Assembly (NCBI GenBank): GCA_030704615.1 | Contig: CM060732.1 | Coordinates: 18,166,001 to 18,230,000, forward strand | DNA: 64,000 nt | Direction: 5' to 3' | Origin: Takakia lepidozioides | Lineage: Eukaryota; Plantae; Bryophyta | In this document: positions 10,636-45,576 of the stretch, in pieces | Position numbering within the stretch: the stretch's first letter is position 1 | Layout of the letters: each line of letters opens with the position of its first letter | Notes under the pieces: generated by a model | Databases searched by the model: none | Told to the model about the DNA's origin: nothing | What the model saw: only the letters and a program-made list of their open reading frames with translations | Made by a program: the position numbers and the translations under genes

Positions 10636-10639
10636 TAAA

Positions 10640-16815: not shown

Positions 16816-16851
<36 letters not shown>

Positions 16852-16854
16852 CAA

Positions 16855-18627: not shown

Positions 18628-20361
18628 GAGGGAAGATATACATGTCATGTCAAGACATGGACAAGACCGCTAAGGTCATTGTCATTGAAAGACAAAACAG
18701 CCCTTTACAGGGCACCATCTAACATTCCTTTCATGTTTACAATCTCATTTGAATACCCCATTACATTTCAGGGTCTCTGAAAAAACAGGGCGGGAGGGTG
18801 GGATTCCAGGTCATTCATATCATGAAAGCACCATAGTGCATCATCATCTCAAAAATTCATTTCAAACTCATTTCAAAAACCAGATTGCAGGTTTGGTTTG
18901 AAGATGATGTTTAGAACCAAGATATAAGCAAGATTCTTAAAAAGGAAGAAGAAACAAAAGGGTAGAGCCCCTTAAGCAGGTATAGGCCTAGAATGGTATT
19001 TTAAGGCCTCATAAAATAGTTCTGCCAAGGTGAAAGAGCAGCTCAGAAACCCCTGTTTGTTATCAAGCCATGAAACCAAAATGATATGAGGGCCTTGAAG
19101 AATGTGTGTTATCTATCAAAGCCTATCCTTTTGATCCATCAGAGTCATACCAAGAGTTCTCATTTCAGAGCCAAGTATCAAAGCAGTCAGAGTAATAACT
19201 GCTATTTTGTATCCTTGTATCCTTCATAGCTAACTCCTACACATGCAAATGTGGTTGTAAAAAACCATAAACAGGGGTAAGGAGAGAAGCAGATCCTCAT
19301 TGGAGCCATCTTGGAGCAGGTCTGAAGCGGCATGGTGGCAGTTTGAAACATCAGATGGCATCAGCAGCTTAGGCAGCAGCAGAATCCACATTTGCAAGAA
19401 CAGGACTGCAAGCTTCAAGAAATCAAGACAAGTGAAGACCCTCACCTGTGCCCGTCCCAAAAACCACCACATAGCGATGTGTGTGTGTTAGTGAGGATGC
19501 AGCAGGTAATGGCAGGTCTTCACAGTTGCTATCCATGTCAGTGTTGAATTCTAAAGCAAGTACAGATCACAATTCAAGCAAGGGTAAACTCAAAAAACCT
19601 TGAGTGTTTGTGGTATGCCCTGCGCCATGGCGTCCAACAGATGTCTCCAACAGAACGCAATCAGAGTAGAAGCGTTCACAGATAGAGAATGGCTCATACA
19701 CAAAGAGAGAGCAACAAGTAATCTGTAGATAAATAGGGATAGAGTACTTCCCAACAAGGAGTAAAAGCGCCGCTGCAAAATAAAGAACCATGAGTTTCTG
19801 ATCAAAGCGATCACCGCTTTGTCGTCTGCCAGAGAAGAATCTGTTTAACCACCAATGCGCATCCCAAGAGCCAGCCATCACGAGTACCATGTAGCAGCAG
19901 GGGAGCAGGTTTATACGGCGCATCATCAAGGTTCACTGAAGCACGAGTTCAGTGCTGTGAAGTGTGTCGGCCTGCTTAGGGCAAAAATTTTTCATCCAGG
20001 GTGGATGAAAAATCACATTTTACCAAGAGAGGCATTTGTCAATGGATGACATCCCATAGAAATGTATCTTTTAGGGTTATGGTATAGGCTTAGGTTTAAT
20101 AACTGCCATCATTTATGATGGTAGTTTTATTATTCTCTTGGATTTTATAATAGGTAACCATTATTTATGTAGATCATCCAGTTTAGATGAAGAAATAGAT
20201 GGTAAATCCAGCTTTCTGTACATTAAGTTTCATCACCCTATAATAAAATCATCCAGATTTGGATGAAAAAGGCTGGGATGAAAAACTAAATAACCTCAAA
20301 AGGTTAAGGCCAGATGAAATCCAAAGAGTTATAGAGGGAGAGGGAGAGAGGGAGAGAGAGG
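18628..20361 (-). mobile_element. Family B unit / 3' tail of PLE copy 2
   Basis: Near identity to 4603-6420. Confidence 0.65.
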
Positions 20362-23300
20362 GACCCACCAGCCAATCCCCTGGCATGGCAGAACCTTACG
20401 GAGTGAGTGTGGTATGCACTCACCCCGTAAGGGAGTGCATACCAGACCTCTTCTCATAAGGTTTTCCCTCTTCCATGTAGTTCTATCCTCAGATATATTA
20501 TCCAAAGGAGTAGAATCCTACATCCTCACTTCCTCGGATCAAGAATGAAACGATGGCATAAAATGTATCATAGCAAACTAGTATAGTATCACTAGAAAAG
20601 AACGGAGAGTTCAATGGTATAACTTAGCTCTGTATAGTTTTTAGAAAGTACCTTTCAGTTTCTCAATAAGCTCTTGTACAGGGAAGAGCAGGCCAGGGAA
20701 TGAACCACGTTCAAGGAATTTTGTCAAGATACGAGCAAGTTTCTGGTCTTGAAACCATTCCTCCCAAGAGTGTTAATCAGAATGCTACACTCCTTCCCAG
20801 CCAAATCAGCATTGCTGGAAATGTATAGAATAGGCACAGCTTGTGAAATCACAATGTTATAAGATTGATTCACAGGCCTATTGGATAAGAACTGGATATA
20901 TTGAGTGTAAGAGAAAGGGTAGTCTTCTCTTGTCATATTTCTGGAAATGGAACTCACCTGTGTCACTGTTTGAGACTGTAATCTGGATATTCATGAAACA
21001 AGCTTCCAACCCCACGTATTGGGAATCGGTTTTAGTGCGTAGTAGCTCAGGTTTGATCTCCACTACATTGAGTGGGTAGATCCACCAAGGGTTGTTGCTG
21101 CTTCTGTCTGCCCATGGGTCCAGGAATAGCATTGCATCACCCACATTCAGCCAGCATATATCATCAATGTATCTGAAGGCAGATTTAAACATAGGCATAA
21201 GCTGGAATTGTCCTAAAGCTGCAAGCCTTAAGATGAATTTGATTTCATAAGAAAAAGAAGTACATGTTGCACCATAATGGTGAGCATGAAAAACCCATAG
21301 GTATTCCAGAAATCTGCTGCCACACACGGTCCCCTAAGGCGACAAAACAGTGTGACATAAGCCATTTGTGGAGCATAAGTAGCTTGACTTCAGAAAGTTC
21401 AATCCAGGTACCTGATTTTGGGGAAGACGTGCCCCATCTACTTTTTCCGAAAGTACCGTTTTTGGCTGGAATCCATAGAGTATGACGTGCTCGGGGGTGA
21501 GACCGATGGTGTTGCTGGAATGCAATCTTCACCACGTATTCAATGGCGTCCCCTAAGTTATCCTGTCCTGTCAAAGGTATGTTCTCATAGCATTGTGTAA
21601 TGTCAGCAACAAAGATGTTATGGACTTTTTCAGGCAGGTTTAGTGTAAAGTCAGTGATGGAGTCAATAATCCAATACATAGCAGTAGATACTTTGAAAAA
21701 TTGCTCATAAGTATCCAGCCTTGTCTTGGCCCATTCTTTTACCAATGGTAGAAGATCCATGGTAGCCCTTGTAAGAAGGCTAGCTAGTTCACTGAAAACA
21801 CATTTATGGGCATTGGTAATCCATCTGTATTTTTTCTTATGTAGCTTGTAGATTCCCATAATGTAAGGTAGTCTATAGGAGGGAGCAGGTATCTCCGGAA
21901 TCAGACTCTGTATTTCCACGGAAATGTTTCCTAGAACAAGGTCAGGTGGCAGCCATACCTCAGCTTGCTTGCATGGTGTAAAGTCTTTACCCATCAATCT
22001 GTGGAAGGCTTGAGTTCTTATGTGCTTTACACACATAAAACATACGTTGTTGTTAGCCTTGTCAAGACCAGAAAAATACAGGTGATTGAGAAGCCATGAA
22101 AGTTCATCTTTTGCCTCTTTTACAGTAAGAGGATTGCGCTCATGGTGAGTGAAGTCGTACCTTCCTCTGCCGGCTTTTTGTTTCAATCTATCCCAGCATG
22201 TGTTTTTTACCCATTGGCTGCAGGTTGGCCCAAGATTCACATGGGTCTACATGTAAAATTTCACAGGTTCTATGGAAAGCCAAAGACACTTGTTCAACAA
22301 CGTCTTTCAGCAAAGTACGTTTGAGAGGGATGTGATTCATACCTAGGCTGAATAGTTCTTTCAGCCTTGCGTGTCTAATAATATTCAGGTCCATGGTACG
22401 TACGTGTTGCGTAGGTGTAGAACCAGATAGATGGAATTCTGTTTTTGTATCCACATCCCGAAAATCATGAAACCTCTTGGCACTGTCACATAGACAATCT
22501 GGTGAGTGAATCAGGTCTTGCATAAAGCAAAAATCACGGAAAACAGCAGCAGGCTGATAGTATTCAGAGCTGCTTTTTTATGATATGTCCATCCAAAAAC
22601 TATCTCATCGATGAGAATAGCCAAGTCATTTTGTCCAAATTCCAAAAAAGCTTCTTTTATCAAGTTCCTAGGGTTTATCCACTCCATACCACGGTTTGGG
22701 TACAACATATGAATGAATCCCAAGGGAGCAGGTTTTGCTGCCTGTTTTATGAATTTCCTGCCATGGGCATGAGTTTCAATTTGTCTGCAACCATCCTCAA
22801 GACCAAACAACGCATCTGCACATACAAAGTAGAGGAACATACCAAAAATGAGATTTTTAAAGATCTGTCCATGATCCAAAATCTCGTTTGCGTATTGGGG
22901 AGAACTCGTCAGTGATACGACGAGTCTTGTATGACTCCTGGCTGGCGATGTTGATGGTGGTACTGGAATTAGCACCCGAACCCCCAAGTGATGACCGATT
23001 CGTTGCTCTTGAATTCTCAGAGGTGTGGTAGAGTATTGCCCCTGCCAGAGCGTCCTCCTCTTTGGTAGAGACCTCTTCCACGACCAGGGGTGCCTCTGCC
23101 TCGAGTGGCATTGTTCTTGCCTTGTTGAGGAGGCGTCTGCCCCTCCATACGCTGCCGTTTGTAGCTATTGAATTGTGGCCTGGGAAGGCTGTCTGAAAAA
23201 ACCCAGGTTTCACAAGTTTCTCAATGTATCTGGCCCCCTTGGATTCTCCTAACTTCCCAAGCAACTTGGCTTGGGGGTCAATTGAGAATTCACAAGCTGC

Positions 23301-24578
23301 TTCCATTATGAAGCCCCGGGTCATCTGGAAGGTAATTTGTGCAAGTACAGCAGATCTGGCAGCCCGCATGATCCACACCAGAAAGCTGTAATACTTGGTT
23401 TGCACCGAAGGATAGGCATCATCAGGGAAGAACACAATCAGATTGTTCAGCATATACCATACCATATGGTCAAACCAAGCAACACTCCCAATGCAAGAAG
23501 AGGGTGCCCCTCCTTGTCCACAGTTACATCTTATGTAGGGACGATGCCAGTTGAAGAGTTGACTCTTGTGATTTTTGGATCTGGCCGAACCAGTCGGCAA
23601 GTCATTTTTGGTCCTCAAGGTAAGGTTCTCACCTTTGTCACAGAGCTTGTAGTAGAAGGTCCTTAGTGGCCATGCCACAGCAATAGGTTCCTTTTTTATT
23701 CTCTGAAAACCCTCCTTAGCATCCTGTGCACATCTACTGCGTTCAGCAGGAGTTATGTTGCCCCATTTGACCACATTTCAATAGAAATGGGTGCCAATAA
23801 ATTGATATTAGCATGTGGGTGCCACATCATGTGGTCGTTATTGGCAACCTCTAATTCAACTGCACGGGGAGGCAACCAAGGGACAAACTGCAGATTTCCA
23901 GGAGTGGCACCTGCTGCCCTTTCTTGTTCCACTTGTGAGATTTCTACTTGTTCACAGAATTCTCTCACTGCCTCTTTTTCTTCATCCGGTAAAATCATGT
24001 GCCCAAGGATTGGGTGATTACTTACAGAAGGGATGAAGTCTTTTTCAGATGTGTTTGTAGATTTCTGCGTGGAGACAGTCTGGTCATCTTCTGGGTTCGC
24101 CATTCTAAGAGCTGCCTCAATGGCTGATCCCTTCTTTTCCCATTGTATCAGCTCCTCGGCATCATCTTCCAGTACCTCAATCATTTTAGTATTGAATTCC
24201 TGGAGCTTCTCCAGGTACCTGCCATTCTTATTTGCCATGATGCCAAGTGCAACCCAATTTTCCAAAGCCAAGTTTCAAGTAATAACACGGGGTTTTCATC
24301 ACCTGAATTTTCCACGGCCTCAGTATCCATCTTTTGCAATGCAGCATGGAAGTCTTGGTGTGACTTGTGCGAGGGTTGCCTGCACAGCAGGAATTGGAGG
24401 AGGTAGTGGGGACTGATACCCCAGGGCTATGAGGTCCTCATTCCAGCTAGGACCTCCTTTGGTGACTTTCTGTCAAAGCCCCCCGAGAACATTTGTCAAT
24501 ATATCAAAATGAGAAGGTGAAAAGGAGAAGGTAAGGTAGATGGTGTGTACAAAAACCACTAAGTACACTGATCAAATA
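20362..24578 (-). mobile_element. Penelope-like retroelement, copy 2
   Basis: ORF 21245-22240 holds DKANNN, YIMGIYKLHK, ADITQCYENIP and QQISGIPMGFSCSP. ORF 20878-21327 holds FRYIDD. Confidence 0.87.
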
Positions 24579-24966
24579 AAGAGAGGGAAGATATACATGT
24601 CATGTCAAGACATGGACAAGACCGCTAAGGTCATTGTCATTGAAAGACAGCCCTTTACAGGGCACCATCTAACATACAATCTCATTTGAATACCCCATTA
24701 CATTTCAGGGTCTCTGAGGGCGGGAGGGTGGGATTCCAGGTCATTCATATCATGAAAGCACCATAGTATGAACTCATTTCAAAAACCAGATTGCAGGTTT
24801 GGTTTGAAGATGATGTTTTAGAACCAAGATATAAGCAAGATTCTTCCTATAGCCGTTGCAAATGGCAAGGCACAGGCCTCCCATTGCTAAGAATGGTCGG
24901 GGGTTCTTCAAGGTCCCATGCCATTTGGGAGAGGGTCTCAAAAGGAAAACACCAGTTGTTGGTTTA

Positions 24967-26745: not shown

Positions 26746-26989
26746 CCGTGGTGCTCAGCAGCTGTTGGTGGTGCTCTGTCACTTCCCCCCCACCTTTTTC
26801 TCTTTGTTGCCCCCTCTCGAGACCCCGAGCACTTGCTGCTCTCAGCCCCCGACATGCTTGGTTTTTTTTGTTTTTGATCTGGAATGTTCCTAATGAGGCC
26901 AACTTGTGGGTTTGCATGACAGGTGCCAGCTTATGGGGAAAGAGAAGAAGTCCCCTGCCCCAAAGAAAGGGGCGGACAATCCGTTTGCT

Positions 26990-29170
26990 CTGCCGGCACG
27001 TGTGACGTGCCAGGGCGTCACGGCTAACCAGCCCGTCGACAGCCGCAGCGGAGGGCTCGTCTGCCCCCGAGGCCAGTACCCCCCCTCTTGTCCACATCTT
27101 GGATGCACAGGGGCCGGCTCAGCCAGCTCTCCTATTCGGGAGGTTGTTGCTGAGCCGGATGCTCAGTTGAGCACACCCCGGCCACCAAGACGGGTGAAAT
27201 GTACCTTGGCAAGCACATCACCCGTTCGGGGGCCCGGTATGGGCACCTTTTGGATGTCACCCCCATAGCGACCCCTTCCTCCGCAGCAAAGGCTGCACTT
27301 GCCAAGGCCCAACGTCAGGTTCAAGGGCCTTTGAAAGCCTCCATTGCCAGCCCATTTGTCGATGAGGGAGGAGGAGACGAGGAGGGCCAATGAAGTGGCC
27401 AAGATAGCGAAGCGCCTCGAAGAAGTCAAGCGGGTGAGGGCTTCTACCCTGATACGCATTTGGGGGGGGGGAGAGGAGGAGGTATGGGCCGGTTTGGAGC
27501 AGCCTAGCCGATCAGCGACACCGCCCCCTGAGCCTGAGCGGTCAGCAAAGAAGGGCCTGGACTACGGGGCGCCGCCGCCGGCTATGCTCCACATCTGGAA
27601 TCTACTTCCAGTGGCGCTCCGGGAGGGGATAGAGCGGGCACATCCGGAAACGGGGACTCCTCCACATCGGGTGACACCAGGGCGAGTCGGACAAGCTTGC
27701 AAAGGTACAACTGTCGCACCTTGTTCCATGATTTATCCTTTCTTTGCATGCATGATTTTCTTTGTTGTTTGTTTCTTTTTTTGAATTTGGAGGGGTTATT
27801 TGTCTTCAGGAGGCAGCAACATGGCTGGCCTCATTGGTGCAGTCCAGTGGGGTTGCCAATGAGGGAGAGCACGTGGTGTTCATGAAGGACCCGAACACCA
27901 AAGGTAAGAAGAAGAGGCCTCGATCTCCCGAGATCCCTTTTACCATCAATGAAGGGGCTGGGAGAGAGAGAGAGAGAGAGGGAGAGGGAGAAGGAGAGAG
28001 AGGAAGTAGGGGAAGGGGAAGGAGATGGTCGGAAAAAGAAGAAGAAGAAGAAAAAGAAGTCCATGGAGAGGAAGGGGTGAGTGTGCATGCGGGGGAGGGC
28101 AGGGGTAACAAAGGAGCAGGGGAAGGAGGCTACAAAGAAGGGAGAGGGTGGGATGGCCTTGGTGATACAGGACGTGGAGTTGGCAAAGATCGTGGTGCCA
28201 CCGGTGGAGGTGAATCGCCATGGTGACCCCTGCGGTGCGTTCTGGGAGGCTATGAGAAGAAGCCTTCGAACTCGCATTGAGGTGGTTCCCTTTGCACATC
28301 GAGTGGGCTGATCAGCACTTTGGCGCGAAGCGGGCGTATGCCGTGAGTTAGATCGCCGTTTCCGGGCAATTGGAGTGACACAAGGGTGATGGAGATGGTG
28401 GGGCGAAACTTGAAGGACAGGAGGTACCGTGCCAGACAGATCATTCGGAGGGCAATGGAAAAAGGGGGGGGCCATAACAAACCACCTTATGGAATTACAC
28501 AGGTTGGCAAATCCTGAATCATGTCACCTTCCATTTGTCGCATGTGCATTAATGAGGTGGATTCGATGCAACTATGTGTGTAATTCACTAATTGTGGGGG
28601 GGGCGGTATCGTGGGATGCACTCATTGCGGGAGAGACTGATGCCGCAAACAAGCCAAATTTGACCGGGCACGCGAAGCAACAACAGTCCGCCTTGACAAG
28701 CACGAATCCACACACAAGTGGGGCGCCGGCGGATCCAAGGGTTTTATCTTGCGATTTGTAAGTCGTACTTCCCTATGGATTTTGTTATGTCTTCTTTCTG
28801 GCTCCATCATCGCGAAGAACTGACTTTAATTTGTGGCATGTGTAGCAACGCGCGTTTGAGAGGAAGCCATCCGTAGAGTACAACTACGCCAAGGAGCATG
28901 GTTGGCAATCCCTCATGAAGAACATGGCCAACACAGAGGGGATGAGTGCACTACAGGCACTAGTATGGATGAGGTCGAGGGTCATGCCAGGGATTGGATG
29001 AGAGCTCTGTGGGACTTAGGGGAACGCCACCTCATTTACGTGCTCTGGCAAAGGGCGCGGAGTCATCAGGCTCATCGGATAGCTCTGAGTCCTCCACTGA
29101 GGATGAGGATGAGGATGACTAGTCCTAGTCCATGTAAGTCCCAGGGTCAGTCTACTGAACCCTTGTGAAC
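26990..29170 (+). pseudogene. Degenerate intron-containing gene, possibly a TnpA-like accessory gene of the CACTA element
   Basis: GC-rich, Glu/Arg-rich coding-like blocks separated by T-rich intron-like segments, lying upstream of a CACTA end. No diagnostic motif recognised. Confidence 0.25.
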
Positions 29171-29394
29171 TTTTCAGCTCATTTTGTAAATATATTTCCA
29201 TCTTTCCATCTTCCATCTTATTCATGTGTCGCACCGTCCTCCCCTCGATTCATGCTTGCTCAATTGTGTACCTGCTAACTCAGAGAAATGGAACTGTAAG
29301 TTCTCCCATCCCCAAAACAAAACCAAGGAAAAAAAAAAAAACCACCCCCAATTCACCCCAAAATGAACCCCCAAACCCCACCCCCCCCCAACCA

Positions 29395-30079
29395 GGCTGC
29401 CCTCGCGACTGCATCACGTCGCCAATGGCGACGTGTTTTTTGGGCGGGGTCGCAAGAAGCGACAGTCGGGCGTCGCCCCATTTGCAGGCGGCAACGCCGA
29501 CACCCCCTGCGACGTGTTTTTTTAGTCCGGGGGTCGCAATCCGCGACGTCCTAGCGTCGCGGAGACCGCCACCCTGCTTGCGCCACGTTTTTTTTTTTTT
29601 TTATTAAATTTAAAAACAAAGCGACGCCGGAGCGTCGCAACAACCCACGCCGGGCGTGGCGGAGACCAACTCCCGCTGTTTTGTGCCACGCCCAATAGTC
29701 GCTGGCAGCGACGCACGGGCGTCGCTTGGCGTACCACCCGGCTGACTCCCGGGCAGGTTAGAAAAAAAAAGGGGATGCAACGCCGTGCCGGCGCCCCCAC
29801 CAATGCCGTCGGCTGGAGGGCAGCGACGGCGAGACGTCGCTCGAAGAGGCTCCTGTCATCGGCGCGCCCGAAAAACCGACGTCCGGCAGTCGGGGAGTTG
29901 GAGCGGGGGCTCGCGACCCCCATACGTCGCATTTTTGCGACGTCATTTTGGCGACGCCCTTGCAACTGCAGGGCGACGGCCGGCGTCGCAAATTCTGCGC
30001 TCCCGCGTGCCCAAAAAGGGCGTTTTCCGACGCTGCGGCATGGCGCGGGCGTCGCAAAGGCCCCCCTTTTCCTGTAGTG
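29395..30079. mobile_element. Terminal region of a CACTA (En/Spm) transposon
   Basis: Ends TTTTCCTGTAGTG (reverse complement CACTACAGGAAAA) at 30079, preceded by ~650 bp of dense direct and inverted GCGAC/GTCGC subterminal motifs. Confidence 0.75.
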
Positions 30080-30779
30080 CCCTTTGGCAATGAGAACTCT
30101 CTATGAAACAACTCATTGAAATGAGTCATCTTCCGTGTATCCATGTAGTCTCCTAGACTCTCATTCTCTCCTTCCTCCAAGGCAACTTGAATTGGCCGAG
30201 TTGAGTGGTGTACAAGGCAAACTGAGCCAAGGCAACCTTGCGAAGCTGCCAAAAAAATACAGTCAGTTAAATAACTGTGTTAATGTGTCATCAACAAAAT
30301 GAATCAATTGCCTTGAGAATATAGTGATTATAAATGTACCTGCCACCAAAAAGTCCTTCTATTCAGCCAAGGATCAAGTGTTGGCCCACTGATAGGCCCG
30401 GGTGGAAAAAAATTACGGTCGTGAAGTGTTTGGTCTCTATTCCATATATGTAGCCATTCCACCTTTTCTTCTGGATCCACCCGGGCTGTAGCAATGTTCA
30501 CCATTTTCTCTTGGGTCATTTCCTCTGATCCTGCCTTTACACGTGACCAATGCAGTTTAAGTTCTTGGCCTAGAAGTTTGGTGCAACCTTCCATGTACAC
30601 ACCTGCAATTGAGGAAGATTGGGGTGTGGAACACCGGGAAGGGGGGGGGTGGTATTTGGATATGCCCAAGGGTACTATCCCCTATGCAGAAATGGGACTT
30701 CATAAGGAATGTGTTCGCAGGTAGTCAGTGAGTGATGAAGGGGGTATCTCCACTGAAGTCCCTGTTTTTGATCTGGAGC

Positions 30780-32668
30780 ATGCAGAACAGATTGCTATAT
30801 AGGCCGCTGACGCTGTGGCCCAAGTGGTCCCTGCGGTTGTGGGTGTACCAAAACGCAAATCACGAAAAAAGAAAAGGTGCGGATGTCAATGCAGGTGTGG
30901 CCCCCAATGCAGGTGTGGCTTCTATTGCTGGTCCTATTGATAGTTCTTGTAGTGCCTGCACCTACTACTCGAGGAAACAAGCCAAAGGCAAGCGAACATC
31001 CTTACAGTGCAGTGTCATTTTCCGGTGGTGCACCTAGCATGTATCGCATGAAGATCATGCCTACTCATTTCATTGATATGGTGGAGGCCTCAAGTACATC
31101 TCCTGATGCGACCTTGATAGAGCTCATGGAGTTCTTCAAAAATGTAAGTTTCCCCCAACAAACAAATTTGAATGTAAGGAATTCTTCGATGTTTTTACAT
31201 CCTCATCATCCGGCTATTGACTCCTACATTTTATGTATGTTGTTTGATGTTGCCAGGAACTTGGTCTAGTGTTGTGGATGGAAAAAGCGTGCCTGTGGCT
31301 GTGGACGTGATCATTGTGGACTCCCGACAGGAATGCCTATACAGGGCTGTTTGGATGGTGTACAGGTTCCCCCCTGGAATGCTTTTGATAAACGGTATTG
31401 GGAGTATGCATTCTCCATTGCTAATGACCTGTTGGATGACAATGGATGCTTGGTGTTCTTGCAGGGCTCTAATGATTCTTTTGCATTGGAGCTCTTTTCT
31501 TACTCCAGGGCAGCTCTGTTTCCGTGCTATCAAGGAAATATACTTGCATCAATACCACCCCAATACACACTCAGACAGGAAAGGTAAAAATCATCCCTCT
31601 TCAATATCTCATTGTTTGCTATTTCATCTTCCTACTCTCATACATATTATTAAACCATCCGGGTGCACTGTTTTTGTGGAAATGGCACGTTTAACATCCA
31701 CCATGTTCTTCCACGCCCATGTCCTCACCAAGCAAGGAGGACTATTCAAACTGCGTGAGTCTGGCAAAGTTGTGGACCCCCTTGCAGACCCTGTTGAGTT
31801 GGATGCCATCTACAACCACATTCCAGATGCTGCATTGCCCATGCAAACTCCTCAACAAGCTTGAGGGGGTGCGCGAGATCGTAGTCCCACCTTCATGCAA
31901 GTGTTGTTGGAGACATGCTCACCTCCTGGCTCCCGCATTTTGGATCAAGCTGGCACATGTTTGCATTGGTCTCCATTTTGTAATTAAAATCTTCTGAGTT
32001 GATTCATGATTATTAACTGTTATCCGATATAATATCACCATTGCATGTTTTTTTCCTGCAGGTTCTACATTTATTGCTGCCCGTGAGTCTGGACGTCACG
32101 TATTTGGTCTTGAGGGGGACCAGACGTTGTATGCAGCACGTCTCTCTGCACTTCAAAATACTCGACCTGTTTTGGTTTCATCTGTGGTAACTCCAACCAT
32201 TCAACGTCATGTGAGTTTGTTGGAACCCCCCGCTCCCAAGGTGGTGCGTAAGCTTGGTCTTCATCTCGGCAGTACTTCCTGGTGAGCATGTCTCGCCTCC
32301 ATTCCCTTTATTGCAATCTCTATATTATTTGCAAAGCAAACCATTCCCATTTGATTTGTTAACATAAGTATATATGTATGTGTGATGCAGTGATGGGATT
32401 GTGTGGACCATCTACGACAGTCTACCCCAAAGTCCTCCTTTCATCGTTTTATCTACCTTCGTATGCCGAGTCCCAAGCTTTGCATTCAATACATCAACAA
32501 CGTGATGTAGGTCTTTCCAATGATCTGTTGTTTGAACGAAGAGCAGCTACTGTTGGACAATCCATGGATAGGTTGCGTAGAGTTGAGGCTTTCATGGATG
32601 TGTATGCCTCTGAATCACAGGCTTATGACACGGATGATGAAGTATCAGCTGATGATGTGTGTAGGTAA
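30780..32668 (+). pseudogene. Beta-class N4C/N6A DNA methyltransferase-like gene 1 (multi-exon, disrupted)
   Basis: VDVIIVD(x)PTG (motif IV-like, frameshifted) ... YWEYAFSIANDLLDDNGCLV ... RSPTFMQVLLETCSPPGSRILD (motif X/I). After an AG acceptor at 32061 comes GSTFIAARESGRHVFGLEGD. In-frame TGA at 31862 where the paralog has Trp. Confidence 0.72.
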
Positions 32669-33939
32669 TTAAATTTGTACAATACATTATCCTCATTGTC
32701 AGGCCGAATTTTTGGTTTTTTTTTATGATACATGTGTTTCTCTCTGTGTTACGGTAAAAAAAATGGGGCAAATGACATGGTTGAAATCAGATTTCATGTT
32801 ATCTTCCTGTCATTTGATTTATCTATGTAATAGTTTGTACATAGATCTCTACTGCATTTCATAGATCCCTTTACTGGAATGCGAGTCTGACATGCACTTC
32901 GGCACTATCAAATTTCATCATATTAGTAAGATCAACCCTTATGAGTAGTGTGGCATGTTATGTACACACAGGGTGACTATCTTTATCTCATTAGTGTTTC
33001 ATTTCATTAGTGTTTCAAGTCTGAATGGGTAATATGGTGTATGAACTATTTGATGGATATCTTTGGTGGACATTATGTTTTTGTAAAATAAAATAAAAAG
33101 AAGAAGATAGATATTAGATACTGCAAAACCTATGTAACAAGATTAAATGGGTGGTGGTTTGGTAAGGATTACGTTTTTTAAGTTATGAGATTGCGGGTTC
33201 AATTACCAATCAATAGTGTTTTTTGTAAAATTGAATTCCCTTGCGGGCCATCGCCATTTACTGCCCAAATGTGTAGGCGGACCATCTCCATCACATTGTC
33301 AAGCTCCCTAGCATTCCTTGAGCATTGCTCCATTCTGAACTTCAAACTAGACTCCCACCATTGGAAGAGCCCGTACCTTCACCATGTGTATCTAACAAGG
33401 AGTCGTGCCTCGTCACTTTTTAATTTTTTGACCTTTTTTCACATGTTGGAAAGCCACAAAAGCCACATGTTCCTCTCCCATTCCTACACTCACCCATGTG
33501 GAATAATAATACAATGAATATGGAATATTCATATATAGAATATATTCTTATTCCATCCTTTTGATATTTTGACTATGGACCCTAAGATTAGATGAATCAC
33601 AATTTTTTTGTTTTTTTGGGTACCCTTATTTAAGTGATGTGCATATAAAATTGCTCATATGCATATCTAAAATTTGTATGCACGCATACATTCCTACATA
33701 TGCATGCATTTGTGTGCGCATATAGTATAGGCTGCCTCGGTCGATCTTGTAGCGGAGGAAGGTGCTGCTTCTCAATATGGGGATCTCGACTTCTCCTACC
33801 TGGAACAAGACGTTCGTGACAACAGGGTAGATAATGGATGACTCGATTCTCCCACATGATCTGCCCGCCTATATTCCCAAGAATACAGGCACGGCTCTGG
33901 GTGGTCCATTTGAATAGCCCCTTCCCCCACTCTGTGGGG

Positions 33940-34179
33940 GAGGAGGAAAATGAATTTTCTCTTTGCCACCACAGTGAGAAGCTGGCCATTGGTTTTGGGC
34001 TGATCAGCATGACCCCTAGGACGCCTCTCCGTCTCATCAAGAATCTTCGAGTGTGTGGTGACTGCCACACCTCCACCAAATTCATCTCAAAGTTTGTTGG
34101 CCGAGTAACTGTTGTATGGGATGCTAACCGCTTTCACCACTTTGAAGATGGGATTTGTTCTTGTGGTGATTACTGGTGA
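33940..34179 (+). pseudogene. Isolated C-terminal DYW deaminase fragment of a PPR RNA-editing factor
   Basis: HHSEKLA...[10 protein letters not shown]...[16 protein letters not shown]. No upstream PPR, E domains or PG box. Confidence 0.92.
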
Positions 34180-34662: not shown

Positions 34663-35321
34663 CAGTGTCGGACTGGTATATAGGGTCTGGCCGGGTATTA
34701 ACCAGGGTATTGAATAACTGACCCGGCTGGTATTGGCTTTTGTAATATTATGGTTAATAACCGACCCGGCTGGTATTGGCAATTCCAATACTATGCTTGA
34801 TAACCGGACCGGCTGGTAGTGCCAAGACAATACCTGGACCCGGACTCGGACCCGTATTATGGGCAAAAACAAGGACTATACCATGGTATGAATAAGAAAT
34901 TGGGCGGGTGCACATGATGTCAGGGGTCAGGGTAAGAGGGTGCACATGTCAGGGAGGGCATGTCCAGCCCCAAGGGCCCGCCCCTATTCTTTCTTATTAT
35001 GTAATGCAAAGTTTGAATTTTGCAACATAATAATTAATTTCTGTGTGAAATCAAGTGAAATCTTCTAGATTCAATTAAAGACATATTAATTATTTAGTGG
35101 TTATTTTAATTTTAATTTTAATTATTTATATCCGGGTTAACCGGCTGGTATTAGATTGGAATACCCGTCTGCAAATCAAAAATCATACTACTATTGAGAA
35201 CCGGCGGGTGTTAAAATTAAGAGATTCTTCCAATACTATGGAACCGGCTGGTATTGAAAATTAATTTTCTTTTAATACCCGGACCCGGCTGGTATTAGAA
35301 AAAGCAACCCGCCCAACACTG
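34663..35321. mobile_element. Non-autonomous hAT element (MITE), 659 bp
   Basis: 8-bp TSD GTATGGAC at 34655-34662 and 35322-35329. Imperfect TIR CAGTGTCGGACTGGT / ACCCGCCCAACACTG. Repeated subterminal CCGGCTGGTATT motifs. Confidence 0.9.
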
Positions 35322-36199
35322 GTATGGACCGGCTAAGAGTTTTTAATATAACTCTGAGTGTATTTAGCATAAAACATTTTGTGGAGTAAGATAAAATAAA
35401 TTCCCCAAATAATTTATCAATAAATTAACCAGGGCTACAATCCCCCTGTTAACTATAAAAAAATAAAAAATAAAAAATAAAAAAGTGAAAAAAAGATTAT
35501 ATTGGTAAAATATAAAAGTACATATCTAGTAAACCCTTCACTGTTTACATGGTTCAGATGGATCCCACTAACTTTTGGCGAGGACTACGCTTACTCGACG
35601 AGTTTAAGGCAAGCGTGTGAGGTGGTGGGGCCCGCTGGCCTGAGCTCCTGGAGGCTCCGGCAGACTATGAGTAAAATTTCTTCCCCCATTGAGGTGGGGG
35701 AGCGCCCACACCTCCTGCTCCCTCCTCACGCTCCCCACCTTTAGGACCATGTTCCCAAACATTCTCCAATTTTGCTCCCCTGTTCCCAGTCCAAGATCCT
35801 TGCTCCCCATAGAGCGAGGAGGGGAGCAGGGACCAGGAACAGGGAGGTTAGCTATTTCATGAGCATGAGCGGCATGAGCGGAGTAGTAAGACAATCGGTT
35901 TTCATGAGCAAGAGTACAAATTTCGAAAATAAAAAACAATAAAAAACAATAATTTAATGCAATGTGTCAGGAAAAACAAATATATTATTCGGCCCCTTGA
36001 AGGGAAAATTGTATTTGACAGTTGTGCTCATGATATTTCGTCTTCCGCTCATGCCAATTCCCAGCGACATGTGCAAAATATGGCGCCGAATTTCGCGGTA
36101 ATAGGGTCCGTAACCTTAAAAAAACGGCGACGGTATTTCGCGGGGATAAGGTCTCTCTGGCGAAAAATGGTGCGAATTCCGCGGCTATAGGTCCCTCAT

Positions 36200-36440
36200 G
36201 ACAGGTAATCGGCGCCCATTTCCAGTGCATGTTCGGACTTAGCCAGTTTTTCGGCGCAAATAGGGAAATTCGGCGCCATTTTTCCAGACACTGTACCAGT
36301 GCATGTTGGGACTTAGCCAGTTTTCGGCCCAAAAAAAAAGAAATCGGCGCCATTTCCAGACACTACGGTACCAGTGCATGTTGGGACTTAGCCAGTTTTC
36401 GGCCCCAAAAAAGAAAATTCGGCGCCATTTTTCCAGAAAT
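36200..36440. repeat. ~75-bp tandem repeat x3 (GGACTTAGCCAGTTTT and AAAT(T)CGGCGCCATTT cores)
   Basis: Direct reading. Shares cores with the array at 40513-41075. Confidence 0.85.
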
Positions 36441-36591
36441 GGCCCCACAACTGCTTCTGTTGGATCTCAGTTTGAATGGAATATTGCCTCATTCCATGAG
36501 TTTTGGGGTGCATTTCATTACACTGCAAAAAAAAGTCTGATACAGCAAAATGCAATTGAAAATATCCATATGGAGGATTCCCTTTGCCCCA

Positions 36592-39500
36592 TCAATGATT
36601 TCTGGAATCCCTAAGGAGGAGTTTGTGCAGCTCGTTCACGCTCAACGTCGGTGCATGAATAAAGTCATCAATAGTCACGTTCATCCTCAACCTCTTCAGG
36701 TAAATGTAATACAGATGCTTGCACGGATAATACTTCGAACCCTTCTTTGCTTCCATCAACGAGAAGTCCGTACAATTGCAAGTCGGCTCCACTCCAATCG
36801 TAATTGTGTATACATCGTCGCGTACAGCCGAGCCGGCCGTTGCCATCGATACACACGCCCAAGGCCGGGTGGGGGTACGTCCACGGAGCTCTGAATAGTG
36901 CAAGCCATCCCAAGAGCATTGGCAATCCGAGTCTCATTCAACTTGTTGGGAGGGTGTGTCGTCTCTTCACTCTTCCGAATCGCATTGTGGGATGTGCAGA
37001 ATTGTCCAATCCGTCTCTACTGGACCGAGCAGTCTGCAATGGCTGGATCTGAGGAACCGGAAATGCGTGGGTCGGGATGTCTGTGCGTTGCACCATTCGA
37101 CATCCTGCTGCAGATAGAGCATCCGCCTCATTCTGAGAGAGGCTTCAACCCGGTGCAACAGGCCAGACGCCGGAGGCTCCGGCATTCCCTGAATCCCGTA
37201 CTTGGGCTTGCAAATACACAGGTCATTATGTCGTGCCTACAGAACCAAAATGTCTGCGTTGTGGCGTGAGCAAATGTGGGAGTAAAAAATCTGCCGCTGA
37301 AACAAGGTGCAGATACAGCACCGTGTGGGTTCCTCCGAATCATCTCACCACATCGTGCTCTCGTATCCACCCGGATGGCGCAGCACTTCCCTCGAAATGC
37401 CGGCAATGTCCTCGCAATTCTCCATTGTGACTCCAACACTCTTGTCTCCACAATGGGAATGTTGTACTGCTTTACTACAATGGCTCGTTATGTTGCCGGG
37501 GCACGCGCCCTGTGCTCAAAGGAGATGACGATCTTGAACGTGCAGGACTTGCGGTGCTCGACGAGACCTCCTCGGGCAACATCACCAGACCACGAGGGAG
37601 CGTGCGAATATTCTGTCAGCTCGCCATGAATCCTCTTCTCGGCCAGGTGCCTCGTCAAGTCTTCGTCTCACTGGACGGGTATGAACATCTCCTTCCAAAT
37701 GTTGGCCTCTTCGCAGCAATGGCGTGTCCCAAAGGCCCTCTCGCAGGCCGCCGCCCACTTCCGAGGATTCTTCGATCTAGAGGCAGTCCGCATCAGCATT
37801 TTTCCTGCCTGTCCGGCCCCAAGCCCCACTGTTTCCCTTTCAAGAACTCGTTGTACCTGCATTGCTGCATAATTGACCTCACAATGTCCTCCGTTGTGGC
37901 AGTGAGGATGTCCACCAGATGCGCCGTAGAGGAGGCACGCCGGGAAGAATGCATTGATTTGGCCATGTTTGTCGTGGGCATGTCGGTGTCGGGTCGACAC
38001 ATTTCCTGCCACACAAGCACATGTTGAGGTTACAAGCAAGTTACAAATATGACCAAGAATATATTCACAACGGACCGAATTCATGCAACTCACCTCCCGC
38101 ATATAGTCGCCGAACTGGAGGAAATGATAATGCCACCATGCTAGCCAACTGACCAATTGCTCCTCGTCTGATTTCCTTACAGCACCTGACGATGTCCACC
38201 AGCCCGTATACATGCAAACTGTGTCTCTGCATCATCCAAGGTGGGAGCGCTTCCACGCAAGGCACATGGAACGGTTCTCCTCTCTGAAATCTGGCGCCAC
38301 GAGCCTGGTTGTGTACTGCGAAAGGCTCTGCAGAAAATGGAACCCACAAGATCTCTCATTGCCTTCCATGGGAACATTGGGGTCTTGCCCGTACACCCTT
38401 CGGATGGCAGCCCAATTTGCTTGTGCGTTGTCCGCCATGAAACCACGGAAATTGGGAGGGGCAATCCGCCTTGGCCATCTGTTCGTTTATTCCTGCCAAA
38501 GAAGCATCTCCGATTGTGTGTCCTCTCCTTTCATCTCACAATAGCAATTGTCATTAGCATCCTGCAGTGGGTGTCGTAGACATGTGCACCCATTGTCACC
38601 CACTGGTGATTTGTAATTCGCTTGATATGGTCGAACATGACCCAACTGTTTGACAAGTCCCTGGGCACTCGTCATCCTGTCGACCAGTTCGACGCCGCTG
38701 CTAGGTCCACACGTGGACATTTTGAATACGAAACAATGATCTGCCTCAGTCCCTTGTCCTGGAAACCTACTTCCTTGAATGTAGTCATATCCACATCGTC
38801 GCTTCACCTCCAGAATGGAGTGCATATCCGAGCCACGCCCAATTTTCTGTTTGCATGAGACAATGTGGTTTCGGACATTCGGTGAACATACGTGGGACAC
38901 GACTCCAGTAATGCCTCCATTTCCTTCTCATCGAGAGGAATTCTATCAGAGCCGTCTTCCGACATAATTCTGGCCAATGCCATCTTATGGGCGGCTTGGA
39001 GCTGTATCTGTTTGGGTTTGGCACCCGGTCTCAACTTAACCTCCTCCTTAACGAGCTGCTCTGCCTCATGGGCAGCCTCCCGCGAGTTCCCCCTCGCCAA
39101 TTTGTGACAATGGGAACCAACATGTATGCAAGCTTGGGTGAGGTCAGGGAAACGGTGCAACACATAGAACTGCTTGGCATTACAAACAGACATGCAGTGT
39201 GGTGGTGGTTCTTTGCAATGCGCACACTTAAATGTGGAGTTCGGAACCTTCTCCTGAGCTCGAAATGGTTGATGAGCTGTGCCTGTCCAATCGGGTCTCG
39301 TTCCTGTGACCTCTGGATTTAAAGTGGAAGCAAGTTGGGGAGAAACACCGCAACGCGCCGCACAAACAACGTAGCGCACCCGCACACCATCGAGCATCTT
39401 CATGCTGTGGTTTTGGTAACGCACCAAGGATGACCGTCATGTTTTCTATCCATATCTGTCAACATTCCGGACGCCCTCGAGTAGTCCGCCCGAGGAGGGA

Positions 39501-40116
39501 ACTCAAAGAAGATATTACCGTCGACGTCGGCGGGAAGGCATGTAACCGATTTAATTGCAAACTTGTTGTAGTCCAGCCCGGCCAGCTCCGACCGGTGTCC
39601 CTCCAGGTGAAGCCCTTGTAGAATTTCAAGAATAGATCGAACTGCGGTGCTCGTGCTGGGAATATGACTCCCTCCTCCACTAACGTCCATTGAGGACTTG
39701 CCTGATCTCCAGGACGACCTCGGAACTTCCATGACCTCATCTGAGTCGGACAGGTTGTGAACAACCCGGTTCTCGCTCGTCTTCATGGATGGGTTCGGCT
39801 CTGGATTTACTTCGTTGCGGACTTCTCTCTTTGAGGTAGCCACTCTCTGATTCGCGGATTGTTTCGTGGAAGACGCCAGGATAGAAGGTACATTTGGCGT
39901 GCAAATGAAGTCCCCAACAGCCCTGTATATGACGCTGTCCGATGGTGGAACTCGCCATTCCCTGCCATCGCCGAAATCATCGTGGAGCACAACAATACTC
40001 TCGACAACAAGGCCGTTTGAGTCCTTCCTTTCCTCCTCCAAAAAAACCGACCCCGGTTTCAGGTGGTATCGAACGCACAATATTTCTCCATCACCCGGCA
40101 GATGTCCCCTCTGCAC
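36592..40116 (-). pseudogene. Mutator-like (MULE) DDE transposase with C-terminal SWIM zinc finger, frameshifted
   Basis: CFVFKMST, VMFDH, GFMADNAQANWAAIRRVYG, CGFH (CxxH), WLAWWH, TNMAKSMH (expected catalytic E appears as K). SWIM TCNCTDF...CKHLYYIY in ORF 36592-36903. Confidence 0.75.
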
Positions 40117-40512
40117 GGAAATGAAGCTCTATGCTCGTGAGGAGGGCAGTACACTGTAGCGCTCGGGTTTTCCGCCATGGGAGATGTGCACACAGACTGC
40201 CAGGATGGCGGTGCGGGAAGCTCCCTGATAGAAGGGGGCAGCGATGGGAAGGAATGCGGTGCCGATTTGTCCGAGCGACGAAGCCTGATCCAAATCCAGG
40301 GAGCCAACTATCTCAAAAATCCACAGTCAGAGTGTTAATGAACCTTGTCTCCGGAATGCGGCCCCTGGGTCTTTGCGCAATAACTGCCAACGGTATGCAG
40401 TCAGAAAGTGGGGGGCCGTCCGGATGATGTCGGCTGAAGGGGAGAAGCCGGCACCGTGCCGTCACATTACTACCCCCGAATGGAAATTCGGCACCTAATA
40501 TCCAACATCCAA

Positions 40513-41075
40513 AGTCCCTAGACTGGCTGGCCCGGAACTGGAAATTCGGCGCCATTTTCCAGTTCTAGGCCCTATCCGTTCAGGGACTTAGCCATTTTCG
40601 GGCTAAGTCCCTAGACTGGCTGGCCCTGAACTGGAATTCGGCGCCATTTTCCAGTTCCAGGCCCTATTGCCGTTCAGGGACTTAGCCATTTTCGGGCTAA
40701 GTCCCTAGGGTGGCTGGCCCTGAAGTGGAAATTCGGCGCCATTTTCCAGTTCTAGGCCCTATTGCCGTTCAGGGACGTAGCCATTTTAGGTGGCTGGCCC
40801 TGAACTGGAAATTCGCCTTTTTCCAGTTCTAGGCCCTATTGCCGTTCAGGGACTTAGCCATTTTCGGGCTAAGTCCCTAGGTGGCTGGCCCTGAACTGGA
40901 AATTCGGCGCCATTTTTCCAGTTCTAGGCCCTATTGCGGTTCTGGGACTTAGCCATCTTCGGGCCAAACCGGGAAAAATGGCGCCGAATTTCCAGTTCAG
41001 GGCTCCCAAGATGGCTAAGTCCCTAGGGTGGCAGTCACCGAAAACCGAAATTCGGTGCCATTTTTCCATTTCTAG
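40513..41075. repeat. ~94-bp tandem array (~5 units plus an inverted partial unit) with internal hairpins
   Basis: Units begin GTCCCTAG at ~40513, 40607, 40701 and 40873. Stems GGACTTAGCC/GGCTAAGTCC and AACTGGAAA/TTTCCAGTT. Confidence 0.9.
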
Positions 41076-41156
41076 GCCCACTCACATCCGCCCCACCTGG
41101 GAAAATGGTGCTGAATATGCATTTCAGGGACCTCATTGTGTTTTTCATGAATGCAG

Positions 41157-42601
41157 GTACTGCAAGTTCTCCCTTTTGGAGAAATGTCATCTGTCTTTCG
41201 AGCCACCATTCTTCCTGGCATGGAGGAACCCTGGGGCTGACTCCATGTACACTGACGATATTGTGAAGGAGTGGCATCTGGAACATTTGCGTGATTGCCC
41301 TTGGTATGTGGACCTTCCGCCCGGCTCGCTCGACCCATCCGAGTTTCAATTGAAGCTGGATGCTGAATTCCGACGAAACCGGGCTCCGCTGCCTCCGTTG
41401 GGTGCAAAAGAGGCAAAAGCGCTTGCGAACTCCAGGAAAGCGGCAGAGCTTGCTCAGGCAGGAATTCAGGAGAAATTGCATGAGAAGAGTAAAGGCCAAA
41501 GGAAAAGGACAGGAAAACATGAGTGCAGTAACACCCAAAAGAAGAAACCATCGGGGCATCGGAGGAGGCGCAGGAGGGGACCCAAGAGAGTGACTCGGGC
41601 GACGACTTTGTTCAAGGTCCTGCGACTGCTGTTGCTCCTACCCAATCACCGGTCGTTCGGGTTCCCAAGTCAGTTCGGTGGGACTGGCTCTGCCAAGAAG
41701 TTGGCATTGAGGACGAGCCTACACGGCGGTATTTGGCAGTGACGTTTACGCACAGCCAAAGCTAGAACCTCCAACCATCATCCAATGCGTCAATGAGAGC
41801 TTCCTTGACGCTCTCGCTGCCAGGTGAAGAAGGTGGCACACAACAAGTCTCTGGCGGAGCAGAAGGGGAAAGCCAAGAAGAGGGCTGGCGGTACAGAGCC
41901 TAAAGACACCCCTGGTTTTGAAGCCATGATGGAATTCTTCACGGCTGCACGGATTGCAAGAGCACTCGGGGGGGGGGGGGAGAGAGAGCTTGCGACATGA
42001 TTCTCATCGACATTCCAGATGGGGACTGCTGGAGGGCCTGGATGGTGTGCCCACCTGGAACAGGTTTACCGAGGACTACTGGAAAGCCGGGTTTGGGCTG
42101 GCGGGGATGCTTCTGGATGACGGTGGATGTGTGGTTGGGAAGACCACAGAGAATGCGGTGGCAAGGTGGACACCGAAAAGTGTCACCCCGGTCCTCCTCA
42201 GAAAATGGTTCTGCATCAGTACACAGGGGTTGCGAACAGAGGGCCAAAGTGTAAGTTATCAATCTATTGCATTCACTTCATTGTGGTGTATGTTAAGTAG
42301 ACCCTGGAGTTGATCCCTTCTTTGTTGGATGTGCAGACATTGGTGTTTGAGGCATATTGCTTTGTGAAGAGAGGGTCTACGTTCAAATTCCGCAACGACG
42401 GTCGTCTTGTTGATGTCGCTGTGGACCCTGTAACCTACGATGTCATCTACAACTATGTGCCCCACTCCAGTATGCCGAAGGACACAAAGACAGGCAAACC
42501 GTGGCGGTACAGCCGGACCCGGAGCCCTGCTTTCATCCAAACCCTCATGGAGACGTGCTCGGATGTCCAAGGGCGGATTCTGGACCTCACATGCGGCACG
42601 G
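41157..42601 (+). pseudogene. Beta-class N4C/N6A DNA methyltransferase-like gene 2, divergent from the MULE transposase and interrupted by the Gypsy element
   Basis: DMILIDIPDG...VPTWNRFTEDYWKAGFGLAGMLLDDGGCVV; intron ~42251-42336; RSPAFIQTLMETCSDVQGRILDLTCGTG then a GTAAG donor at 42602. Clearly homologous to gene 1. Confidence 0.72.
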
Positions 42602-42656
42602 GTAAGCCTTCACGTGCTCAGTTTGTACCCTGGCCCGATTGCAATTGCATGCCGCA

Positions 42657-43343
42657 TGTCGTGCGCATACATATCGCTACACAACTACATCGCTGTCCAA
42701 AACCACACAACACATGTGCACACCACACACTAGTATACCACTAGTCCACCACTAGTCCAGCCACTAGTCCACCACTAGGCTACAACTAGTCAGTCACTAG
42801 GCTGCCACTATGCTGCCCACTATGGCAGTCACTAGTCCACACAATGATAAAGAAGAAGAATACAAGCACGAGCTCACAAAGCTGAAGCATAAACTCATGC
42901 ATATATAACCTCATCACTCAAATACAAGTCAAGCCAAGTGCACCCCACGCCATGGGGAATCCACACTACGGCGCCATAGCTAGGCGCGGTGAGGCTCAAC
43001 TCGAGAAAGATGAGCCTCCCGCGCTTGCCGTGAAGATAACCACTCCAGGGCCTAAATCTGCCTTGACCCCTGGATTGACACTTGGGCCAATCCCAAATGT
43101 CAATATGTAAAAGCTAGCTATTTCCTTCCTAGCTAGTTTCACACTAGTGGTAAAATAACTTGACAGCTGTCGTGCGCATACATATCGCTACACACTACAT
43201 ATCGCTGTCCAAAACCACACAACACATGTGCACACCACACACTAGTATACCACTAGTCCACCACTAGTCCAACCACTAGGCTACACTAGTCAGTCACTAG
43301 GCTGCCACTATGCTGCCCACTATGGCAGTCACTAGTCCACACA
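42657..43343 (-). repeat. 3' LTR region of the Gypsy element: two ~180-bp TG...CA direct repeats (42657-42843, 43168-43343) separated by 324 bp
   Basis: Both start TGTCGTGCGCATAC and end CTAGTCCACACA. A PPT-like tract (minus strand AGGGGGGCGAT) abuts 43343. Confidence 0.75.
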
Positions 43344-43603
43344 ATCGCCCCCCTAGCTGGTGCTTAGGTCCCTCTAAGTCCAGGTAGCCACAAGATGTGA
43401 TAGTGACCATAGCCTCACTAAGTCCTCCACCACTATCCCTACTACACTCAAACTCGATAGATCAAGAGGCCGGGTGCAAGAGTTGCCCCATCGTTAGTCG
43501 CCGTCTTGCAACCTGTGAACTTGAGCTTGGGATCTCATGTATTGACTCCTATGAGCTTGGCCTCCCATGTCTTGTTAGCTGCCTCCAGTCATGTCCACTG
43601 CCA

Positions 43604-43747
43604 CTATCCCAAGCAGTGTGGACACAACCAATCTCCGTCAGGAACCTTCTCAAGAGGTGGTGTCAAGCATCCCATATGCCAACCCCTTGAGCATCGATCA
43701 CACAGCATGGTGGCTGCCCCTTTGGCAGACCCACAGAGCATGCACCT
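43604..43747 (-). CDS. PHD finger at the integrase C-terminus
   Basis: CMLC...MLCDRCSRGWHMGCLTPPLEKVPDGDWLCPHC, a canonical C4HC3 with Trp before the last CxxC. Confidence 0.93.
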   Translation of the reverse strand, partial: RCMLCGSAKGAATMLCDRCSRGWHMGCLTPPLEKVPDGDWLCPHCLG

Positions 43748-45000
43748 CAAACCTGCAGGTACCACTGCCAAGTTTGGGTCAACTCTGCCATCGACATTGG
43801 GAAGGTGACATGGCGCACAATTACGCACATGGTCCTTCCAAGTCATGCCATCCCGACCCTCCAAGATCAGGACCCCTGAGGGCAACACCTCTCGAACCCT
43901 CAGAATAACACGCCCTGCAGTAACATCCAGAGTCGTAGGAGCAGTCTGCTGCAAATAAACATAGTCACCAGGGCTAAACCTCCGAACCCCAGGACGATAT
44001 CCTCCACCACGTATAGTGGCATACCTCAACGTATCACGGTGCTGTGTGCAATGGCAAGGTTCTCAAAAGCCATGGGCATGACTTTCTTGAACAACTCTGC
44101 ACGCTGATCACATGCACGTACCCACACGTCCGGATCGTCAAGGTTAAGGACTTGAGCAGTGTCCCTACGAATGGCTGCAGGCAAATCCGGCTCTCGGCCA
44201 AAGAGAAGGAAATATGGTGAGAAGGAGGCAAGTGATGCTTGTTTGCTGAACCTGTAGCCCATGGCTAACCAAGGAACCTGAAGATCCCAATCTCCTAGGT
44301 GTCCCTTCTGCAAGCCATACTTGCGCAAACCCCTCTTCACCGTCTGAACAACTCTCTCTGCTAAGCCATCGGCCTCAGGATGATCCCGAGAAGTGGTGCG
44401 GTGGTCTATCAAGGCTTTATCACACAAAGCCTGAAACTCCCCCAAGAACTCTCTCTCTCCCTTGGTCCGTGAGTACCTCAGCTGGAGCACCAAATCGGCT
44501 AAGCACACGATCCAAGAATGCATACGCAGCCCCCTCACTAGCCTTGTCAGGCAATGGAACCAACTCAATCCACTTGGAGAAGTGCTCCACCATCACCAAC
44601 ACATATCTGTGGTGGCGCATAGTCAGTGGCAACGGTCCTGCGAAGTCAAGACTCCACCTGTAGCCCAATCCCATGATTGGTAAAGGATGCAACTGTGGTG
44701 TAGGGGCGTTGAATGAAGCACGCACCCTGTCACACACCATGCACCTAGCCACGAACTGTTGCACCTCTGTATGCATACCACGCCACCAATACTGCCCCTG
44801 CAGTAAACTGTGAGTGCGTCGCACTCCAAAATGCCCCAACTCCTCATGGGCATGCCGCACTAACCGTGCACGCTGTGTGGGGTGAGGCACAATCCTCACC
44901 CGACCATCCTCCCACACTCGAAGTAGGTGTATCCCCTCCCACTTGAACCTCTTGGCTCGTTGCAGGATCCGATCCCTCTCCCTGGCAGTCACAATGGCTG
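43748..45000 (-). CDS. Integrase (HHCC zinc-binding + DDE core), frameshifted
   Basis: HEELGHFG...CMVC; WSLDFAGP; LTDQG; ADGLAERVVQTVK. Confidence 0.93.
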
Positions 45001-45542: not shown

Positions 45543-45576
45543 CCTCGCCTTGAGCTCTTGAAAAGCTCGTTCCTGC

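Follow-up and report, generated by a model that had tools for sequence, protein, structure and literature searches.

We analysed a 64,000-nucleotide stretch of the Takakia lepidozioides genome (contig CM060732.1 of assembly GCA_030704615.1, positions 18,166,001 to 18,230,000 of the forward strand; hereafter the window) that carries two old paralogs of a DNA amino-methyltransferase-like gene, copy A and copy B. Copy A is broken, and the subfamily of copy B probably serves as a binding accessory gene of a Mutator-like transposon that acts without methylation; we give this reading as a whole about an even chance. The B-type protein itself is likely a DNA-binding helper of the transposon rather than an enzyme. 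Among described systems, it is best placed as a variant of the algal ParB-methyltransferase accessory genes that occurs in a land plant and is probably catalytically dead, with the ParB domain putative. The features of the locus are collected in Table 1.

Table 1. Features of the two methyltransferase-like copies and of the neighboring transposon, in window coordinates.
Feature	Position	Strand	Remark
3' end of CACTA-like element (label presumed), ends TAGTG	30071–30079	+	inserted just 5' of copy A
AMRTLY, candidate counterpart of AMRLLY (end of the upstream exon of the B subfamily)	30087–30104	+	weak, 5/6 residues
Copy A, whole	30545–32281	+	paralog of copy B (41157–42601)
Conserved N-terminal block, copy A	30545–30700	+	tblastn with B, 34% over 58 aa, E 3e-5
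Low-complexity linker, copy A, ends ELMEFFKN	30701–31143	+	contains stops and frameshifts
GT-AG intron, A only	31144–31256	+	B uninterrupted at the equivalent place
Copy A exon: degenerate motif IV (DxPTG), motifs V–VII	31257–31583	+	two internal frameshifts
Phase-0 intron, common to A and B	31584–31699	+	acceptor AG absent in A
Copy A exon: motifs VIII, X, start of I	31700–31958	+	TGA at the Trp of B; motif I minus one codon
Phase-1 GT-AG intron within motif I, common to A and B	31959–32061	+	
Copy A exon: end of motif I, motifs II–III (STFIAARESGRHVFGLEGD)	32062–32281	+	
Candidate extra tail exon of A	32391–32665	+	basis: splice-like sites only
Array 1, GGCGCC-centred near-palindromes	36080–36445		
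Frameshifted Mutator-like transposase gene, C-terminal SWIM finger	36595–40150	-	
Array 2, same GGCGCC-centred near-palindromes	40480–41130		between transposase and copy B
Copy B, whole	41157–42601	+	frameshifted; truncated by LTR
Copy B long exon: N-terminal block, linker, EFF, motif IV (DIPDG) to motif VII	41157–42250	+	10 deletions versus subfamily
Phase-0 GT-AG intron, copy B	42251–42336	+	skipped in one X6 contig, retained in DNA contigs
Copy B exon: motifs VIII, X, I (LDLTCGTG)	42337–42601	+	
5' part of phase-1 intron, copy B	42602–42656	+	cut by LTR starting at 42657

Two old paralogs with a partly shared intron plan

The original prediction had described copy A as a diverged paralog of a gene about 10 kb away. 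All 13 peptides that it quoted are present on the + strand, at 31120–32120 in A and 41923–42561 in B, 10.8 kb apart, and the paralogy itself holds. With X placed at the breaks, 78 of 201 residues are identical (39%, E 1e-42); the Smith-Waterman score is 338, and 1000 shuffles reached 47 at most. The homology also reaches upstream of the proposed start, into the N-terminal block of Table 1. Codon-position identity is 0.49, 0.69 and 0.37 over 86 aligned codons; third positions are near saturation and second positions are kept, which points to an old split, as had been proposed, and to a protein formerly under selection.

The introns had been read as apparently falling at equivalent points, and this is correct for two of the three: the phase-0 intron, with its donor at 31584 in A, and the phase-1 intron inside motif I, whose donor in B is at 42602, are common to both copies. 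The intron after EFFKN is confined to A, and the subfamily of B reads straight on there. Copy A retains the GSTFIAARESGRHVFGLEGD exon, as predicted; that of B was lost in the window to the LTR.

Splicing was supported for one copy type. A single contig of run X6 skips exactly 42251–42336 with GT and AG ends (joint 42250–42337), and contigs of run X5, a plant metagenome DNA run, keep this intron. The same contig also carries 204 letters beyond the donor at 42602, the first ten codons in frame and reading as a plausible motif I tail. That one contig, of a single study and with X6 taken as RNA by guess, supports two junctions in the B subfamily. An X5 contig continues past the same donor to an acceptor-like CAG. 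For copy A, no junction had such support. The acceptor of copy B at 41155–56 coincides with the end of the aligned part of an X6 contig; the upstream exon, of at least 385 letters in X6, and the last exons of B were not found within the window.

Copy A is a pseudogene in the window and copy B represents an open subfamily

Copy A is interrupted by in-frame stops and about five frameshifts; it has also lost an acceptor (AG is absent throughout 31600–31720, at its second intron) and has a one-codon gap in motif I, with GLEGD intact in motif II. As read in the window, it is a pseudogene, the relic of an old intron-containing gene. Part of these lesions could be assembly errors; an X5 contig covers copy A at 96.5%, with 64 gap positions. 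This copy lies on one low-depth X5 contig of 2.46 kb. No RNA run was listed as containing its region, and the two runs guessed as RNA give almost no cover on its methyltransferase exons; both results are uninformative on expression. No carrier element for copy A was found in the window. The element that ends just upstream of it, which we take to be CACTA-like, was considered as a carrier and rejected. An X5 contig has 400 different letters ahead of 30080, so the insertion seems absent there and appears to be a later event. This element occupies 26800–30079, with GCGACG repeats at 29400–30060, and its right end alone was found.

Copy B is frameshifted as well. All 12 indels listed, of 27 between B and the contigs, are letters absent from the window. 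Restoring the lengths of the ten long-exon indels gives a single stop-free frame of 374 aa, and random placement of the same indel lengths gave a stop-free frame in 7 of 20000 trials. On the strength of this restored frame, we judge the subfamily of B to be intact over its visible part. Contigs of X5, X6 and a third run, X7, at ~80–87% identity to B over 42175–42613, represent further paralog subfamilies in the organism.

A beta-class methyltransferase fold

We compared both copies with 14 beta-class enzymes, namely YhdJ of E. coli and 13 related phage proteins that were selected among 40 entries listed out of 783 records. A hidden Markov model of these controls gave 13.2 bits for A and 2.0 bits for B, and none of 500 shuffles reached either score. 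A profile comparison over motifs X-I-II-III (hhalign) returned 96.6% with E 5e-10; the best of 30 column shuffles reached 1.45%, and PrmA reached 0.2%. The motif order, IV to VIII, X, I, II and III, is collinear with the 14 controls and places IV N-terminal to I. A catalytic motif IV that precedes the SAM-binding motif I is a beta-class feature (the accessible part of PMC8885841), and the beta-class reading of the original prediction is supported. In the Atlas search, the first match was PF01555 (0.90), all ten best named matches were of one family or clan, and 133 of 256 features were in common. These comparisons support descent of A and B from a gene related to bacterial and phage beta-class DNA amino-methyltransferases.

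Pfam and NCBIfam gave no methyltransferase match on any single exon, a structure model of the 88-aa exon had a pLDDT of 44.6, and the N-terminal pieces present of A and B had no Pfam match and no usable Atlas match. Motif IV alone contributes ~0 bits to the Markov model, and its assignment therefore rests on order and alignment, where DMILIDIPDG of B lies against DMVCTDIPYG and DMILCDLPYG of the controls.

Motif IV has lost its aromatic residue

The fourth place of motif IV is Tyr in all 14 controls, Asp in copy B (DIPDG) and Thr in copy A (DxPTG). The Asp and Pro of the motif are conserved, and neither copy fits the pattern (D/N/S)-x-P-(Y/F/W). No substitution at the B codon 42019–21 was seen in X5, X6 or X7 among the 40 of 99 rows listed, weaker nearby rows included. 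Motif I of B (DLTCGTG) is glycine-rich and normal-looking and aligns with DNTMGSG or DFTMGSG of the controls; the motif II exon of B lies outside the window. In the accessible text on rotifer N4CMT, the motif IV Tyr is modelled as stacking on the target base (PMC10406627), and a change of SPPY to APPA, which alters two residues, abolishes activity (PMC8885841).

The working enzyme implied by the original prediction is doubtful in view of DIPDG in B and DxPTG in A; that account had overlooked both the decay of the copies and the missing aromatic residue in each. The B-type protein likely binds SAM and DNA without normal catalysis. Since the motif keeps its Asp and Pro, methyltransferase activity is still conceivable, and the subfamily could encode a working amino-methyltransferase of non-canonical type that places 4mC or 6mA on the transposon carrying it. 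An open frame under purifying selection would agree with this, as would a motif I that resembles those of three controls with D[IV]PYG and the retained Asp and Pro at the first and third places of motif IV; activity has been proposed likewise for algal accessory proteins (PMC12477816, in its accessible part). The transposase has a CpG observed/expected ratio of 0.83 and B one of 0.64, compared with 0.42 for A and 0.47 for the LTR element, which fits an escape from 5mC but equally a young age. Against activity stand the exchange of the base-stacking Tyr, modelled for N4CMT, for different residues in A and B, and the loss of N4CMT activity on mutation of SPPY, although two residues were altered there. 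On balance we regard an active enzyme as unlikely.

Copy B adjoins a Mutator-like transposase and palindrome arrays

Copy B stands head-to-head with a transposase gene across a palindrome array. The transposase was recognized by a SWIM finger (Pfam E 8e-4, 19.3 bits, just below the cut-off of 19.6) and by the motifs FDHIKR, GFMADNA and CGFH, read by eye, which we take to be the Mutator DDE core; the Pfam MULE model gave no match on its fragments. SWIM domains are common in MULE groups (Table 1 of PMC6446971, seen in excerpt). The near-palindromes are concentrated around the transposase, with 10 of the 13 scored sites of the window within 36050–41130, and the last degenerate array unit lies at most 30 bases from the acceptor of B. 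An X5 contig of depth 125 spans 41091–41226, from this last unit into the exon of B. The left 400 bases of the element match only the array motif elsewhere in the window. A stretch of ~200 bp (35860–36055), in which inverted repeats of its own were seen by eye, borders the high-depth block on the left and is possibly a separate MITE.

Single-contig depth in X5, a copy-number hint and no count, is 205 and 242 for the transposase, 125–211 for B and 17.5 for A, a roughly tenfold difference between the first two and A. The claim of an expanded family holds in this sense for the subfamily of B only, through the depth hint (125–242 versus 17.5 for A) and the diverged paralog contigs. The claim of mobility is supported for B, by its adjacent transposase and shared palindrome arrays, but not for A, around which no carrier was found. 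We found no contig joining the transposase to B, and neither element termini nor a target-site duplication; the right end was lost to the LTR insertion. B and the transposase probably form one mobile unit.

The upstream exon of B is missing from the window, so the transposase unit could instead sit inside the first intron of B. A and B might also belong to a host gene family like Marchantia DN4MT1, with a Mutator-like element that happened to land in or beside one copy. The absence of a carrier around A, on its one low-depth contig of 2.46 kb, agrees with a host family, and an inserted element would displace the first exon of B, which is missing at that place. The array end and the B exon nevertheless share one high-depth contig, depth is high and similar on B and on the transposase, and DN4MT1, as far as its description was accessible, has TSPPY and forms a tandem pair. 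We consider a host family unlikely, slightly more so than an active enzyme. Functionless cargo, captured passively in the manner of a Pack-MULE and copied with the element, is improbable. In its favor are the damage to A and B in the window, the loss of the catalytic Tyr and the first exon missing there, but the subfamily of B has an open 374-aa frame and a spliced junction, and amino acids are conserved between A and B despite saturated third positions.

Other elements in the window

A Gypsy-like LTR retroelement on the - strand (42657–53000), with an LTR at 42657 and again at 43168, cuts the intron of B. It contains pieces of a C5 cytosine methyltransferase between protease and reverse transcriptase (PF00145, E 6e-10, 47320–48000), a second transposon-borne methyltransferase in the window. 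Large tandem duplications lie within positions 1–26800 (1–10951 versus 14041–24845, ~98% identity) and hold reverse-transcriptase-like frame fragments with YIDD (6789–7466 and 20881–21333), presumably Penelope-like. Between copy A and array 1 lie a C-terminal PPR-DYW fragment that ends in DYW and is indicative of a land-plant host (33835–34176, + strand) and a ACCCGGCTGGTATT repeat array (34690–35330). A stop-free frame of at least 799 codons (61604–64000, + strand) runs off the end of the window; the assembly is not frameshifted everywhere.

Relatives and described systems

No relatives outside the source organism were retrieved in our sequence and pattern searches. Word-index protein searches with a B exon, an A exon and the N-terminal piece of B found nothing among longer proteins, which is weak evidence. 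Scans with the A/B alignment confirmed none of 107 pattern matches in metagenomes, none of 48 in viral contigs and none of 117 in prokaryote genomes, and all seven matches of a degenerate motif pattern were chance. A tblastn search of phages gave 12 records (best E 0.9), none annotated as a methyltransferase, and sequence searches of the PDB returned nothing relevant.

Comparison was made with systems described in the accessible portions of the papers cited below. The nearest described case would be the accessory gene of Ectocarpus Sola1-1_Ec32, whose product combines a ParB-like region with an N4/N6 methyltransferase, is encoded opposite the transposase and has reported counterparts in green and red algae (PMC12477816). 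In both systems a prokaryote-type amino-methyltransferase gene lies on the strand opposite a transposase, of DDE type in the alga and putatively so here. For the algal protein, binding and modification of the element that carries it have been proposed, and own-element binding is what we propose for B. The likeness is one of description, and the present case differs in its land-plant host, its Mutator-like transposase and the lost Tyr of motif IV. No ParB-like domain of the algal type was recognized by Pfam or the Atlas in the N-terminal pieces present in the window, and the first exon of B is absent from it.

Plavaka elements of Bostrychia and other red algae carry PAG2 (PF01555 plus SET) and PAG3 (ParB plus 2OG oxygenase), and homologs are also reported in Chondrus Mutator elements (bioRxiv 10.1101/2025.02.11.637652). 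PF01555-type cargo and tandem inverted-repeat arrays that adjoin the accessory gene recur here, whereas no SET or oxygenase domain was found and single exons score nothing on Pfam PF01555. Arabidopsis VANC, the accessory protein of a MULE, serves as the model for anti-silencing through binding (PMC13317346). The locus resembles the VANDAL/VANC non-TIR MULEs in its Mutator-type element, accessory gene and short motifs in non-coding DNA; VANC, however, is not described as a methyltransferase fold in the text available, and we claim a likeness of layout and no homology.

The host enzymes rotifer N4CMT (PMC8885841, PMC10406627) and Marchantia DN4MT1a/b are likewise eukaryotic beta-class amino-methyltransferases of bacterial origin, but they are active, with SPPY and (T)SPPY, respectively, in place of the DIPDG and DxPTG found here in a transposon context. 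With prokaryotic and phage PF01555 N6A/N4C enzymes, the copies share motif order and a collinear alignment; they differ in their spliceosomal introns, long N-terminal extension and motif IV without Tyr, and in having RSP at the HPTQKP-type segment.

Section 8 of Iyer et al., as far as accessible, lists no such land-plant clade, and the same paper describes inactive methyltransferase domains in DIRS1 elements (PMC4738411). Its clade 6, considered as a moss or lycophyte relative, was rejected as a haptophyte, unpermuted clade. The accessible domain table for active TIR elements of plants lists neither PF01555 nor N6_N4 (PMC12973397), an absence that says little because Pfam misses the A/B family on exons. 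Within the open, non-subscription literature, we found no land-plant transposon described as carrying such a gene.

Discussion

We favor a model, built on sequence and layout, in which the gene of copy B would travel as an accessory gene of a Mutator-like transposon. Its protein would have kept SAM and DNA binding and lost catalysis, and would bind the palindrome arrays of its own element without methylating them. Binding to these CG-containing GGCGCC arrays might shield the element from silencing by host 5mC; alternatively, it might help transposase assembly. In its most far-reaching form, the model describes a land-plant Mutator element whose long-carried methyltransferase has become a pseudo-enzyme, or has acquired a new active site, and now reads the palindromes of the element and blocks 5mC silencing independently of VANC, the first land-plant case of the algal class in the literature searched. 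We offer this full version only tentatively and rather doubt it.

The value of the locus lies in paralog B, an open, spliced and probably disarmed subfamily; copy A, the one flagged by the original prediction, is a relic only. A plant protein with a PF01555-like fold should not be taken as a sign of 4mC or 6mA. Amino-methyltransferases carried by transposons are on record for brown, red and green algae, where self-modification is a proposal. The altered active site of B separates binding from methylation, and an open, spliced land-plant copy with such an active site, beside likely binding sites, makes the idea of self-modification directly testable.
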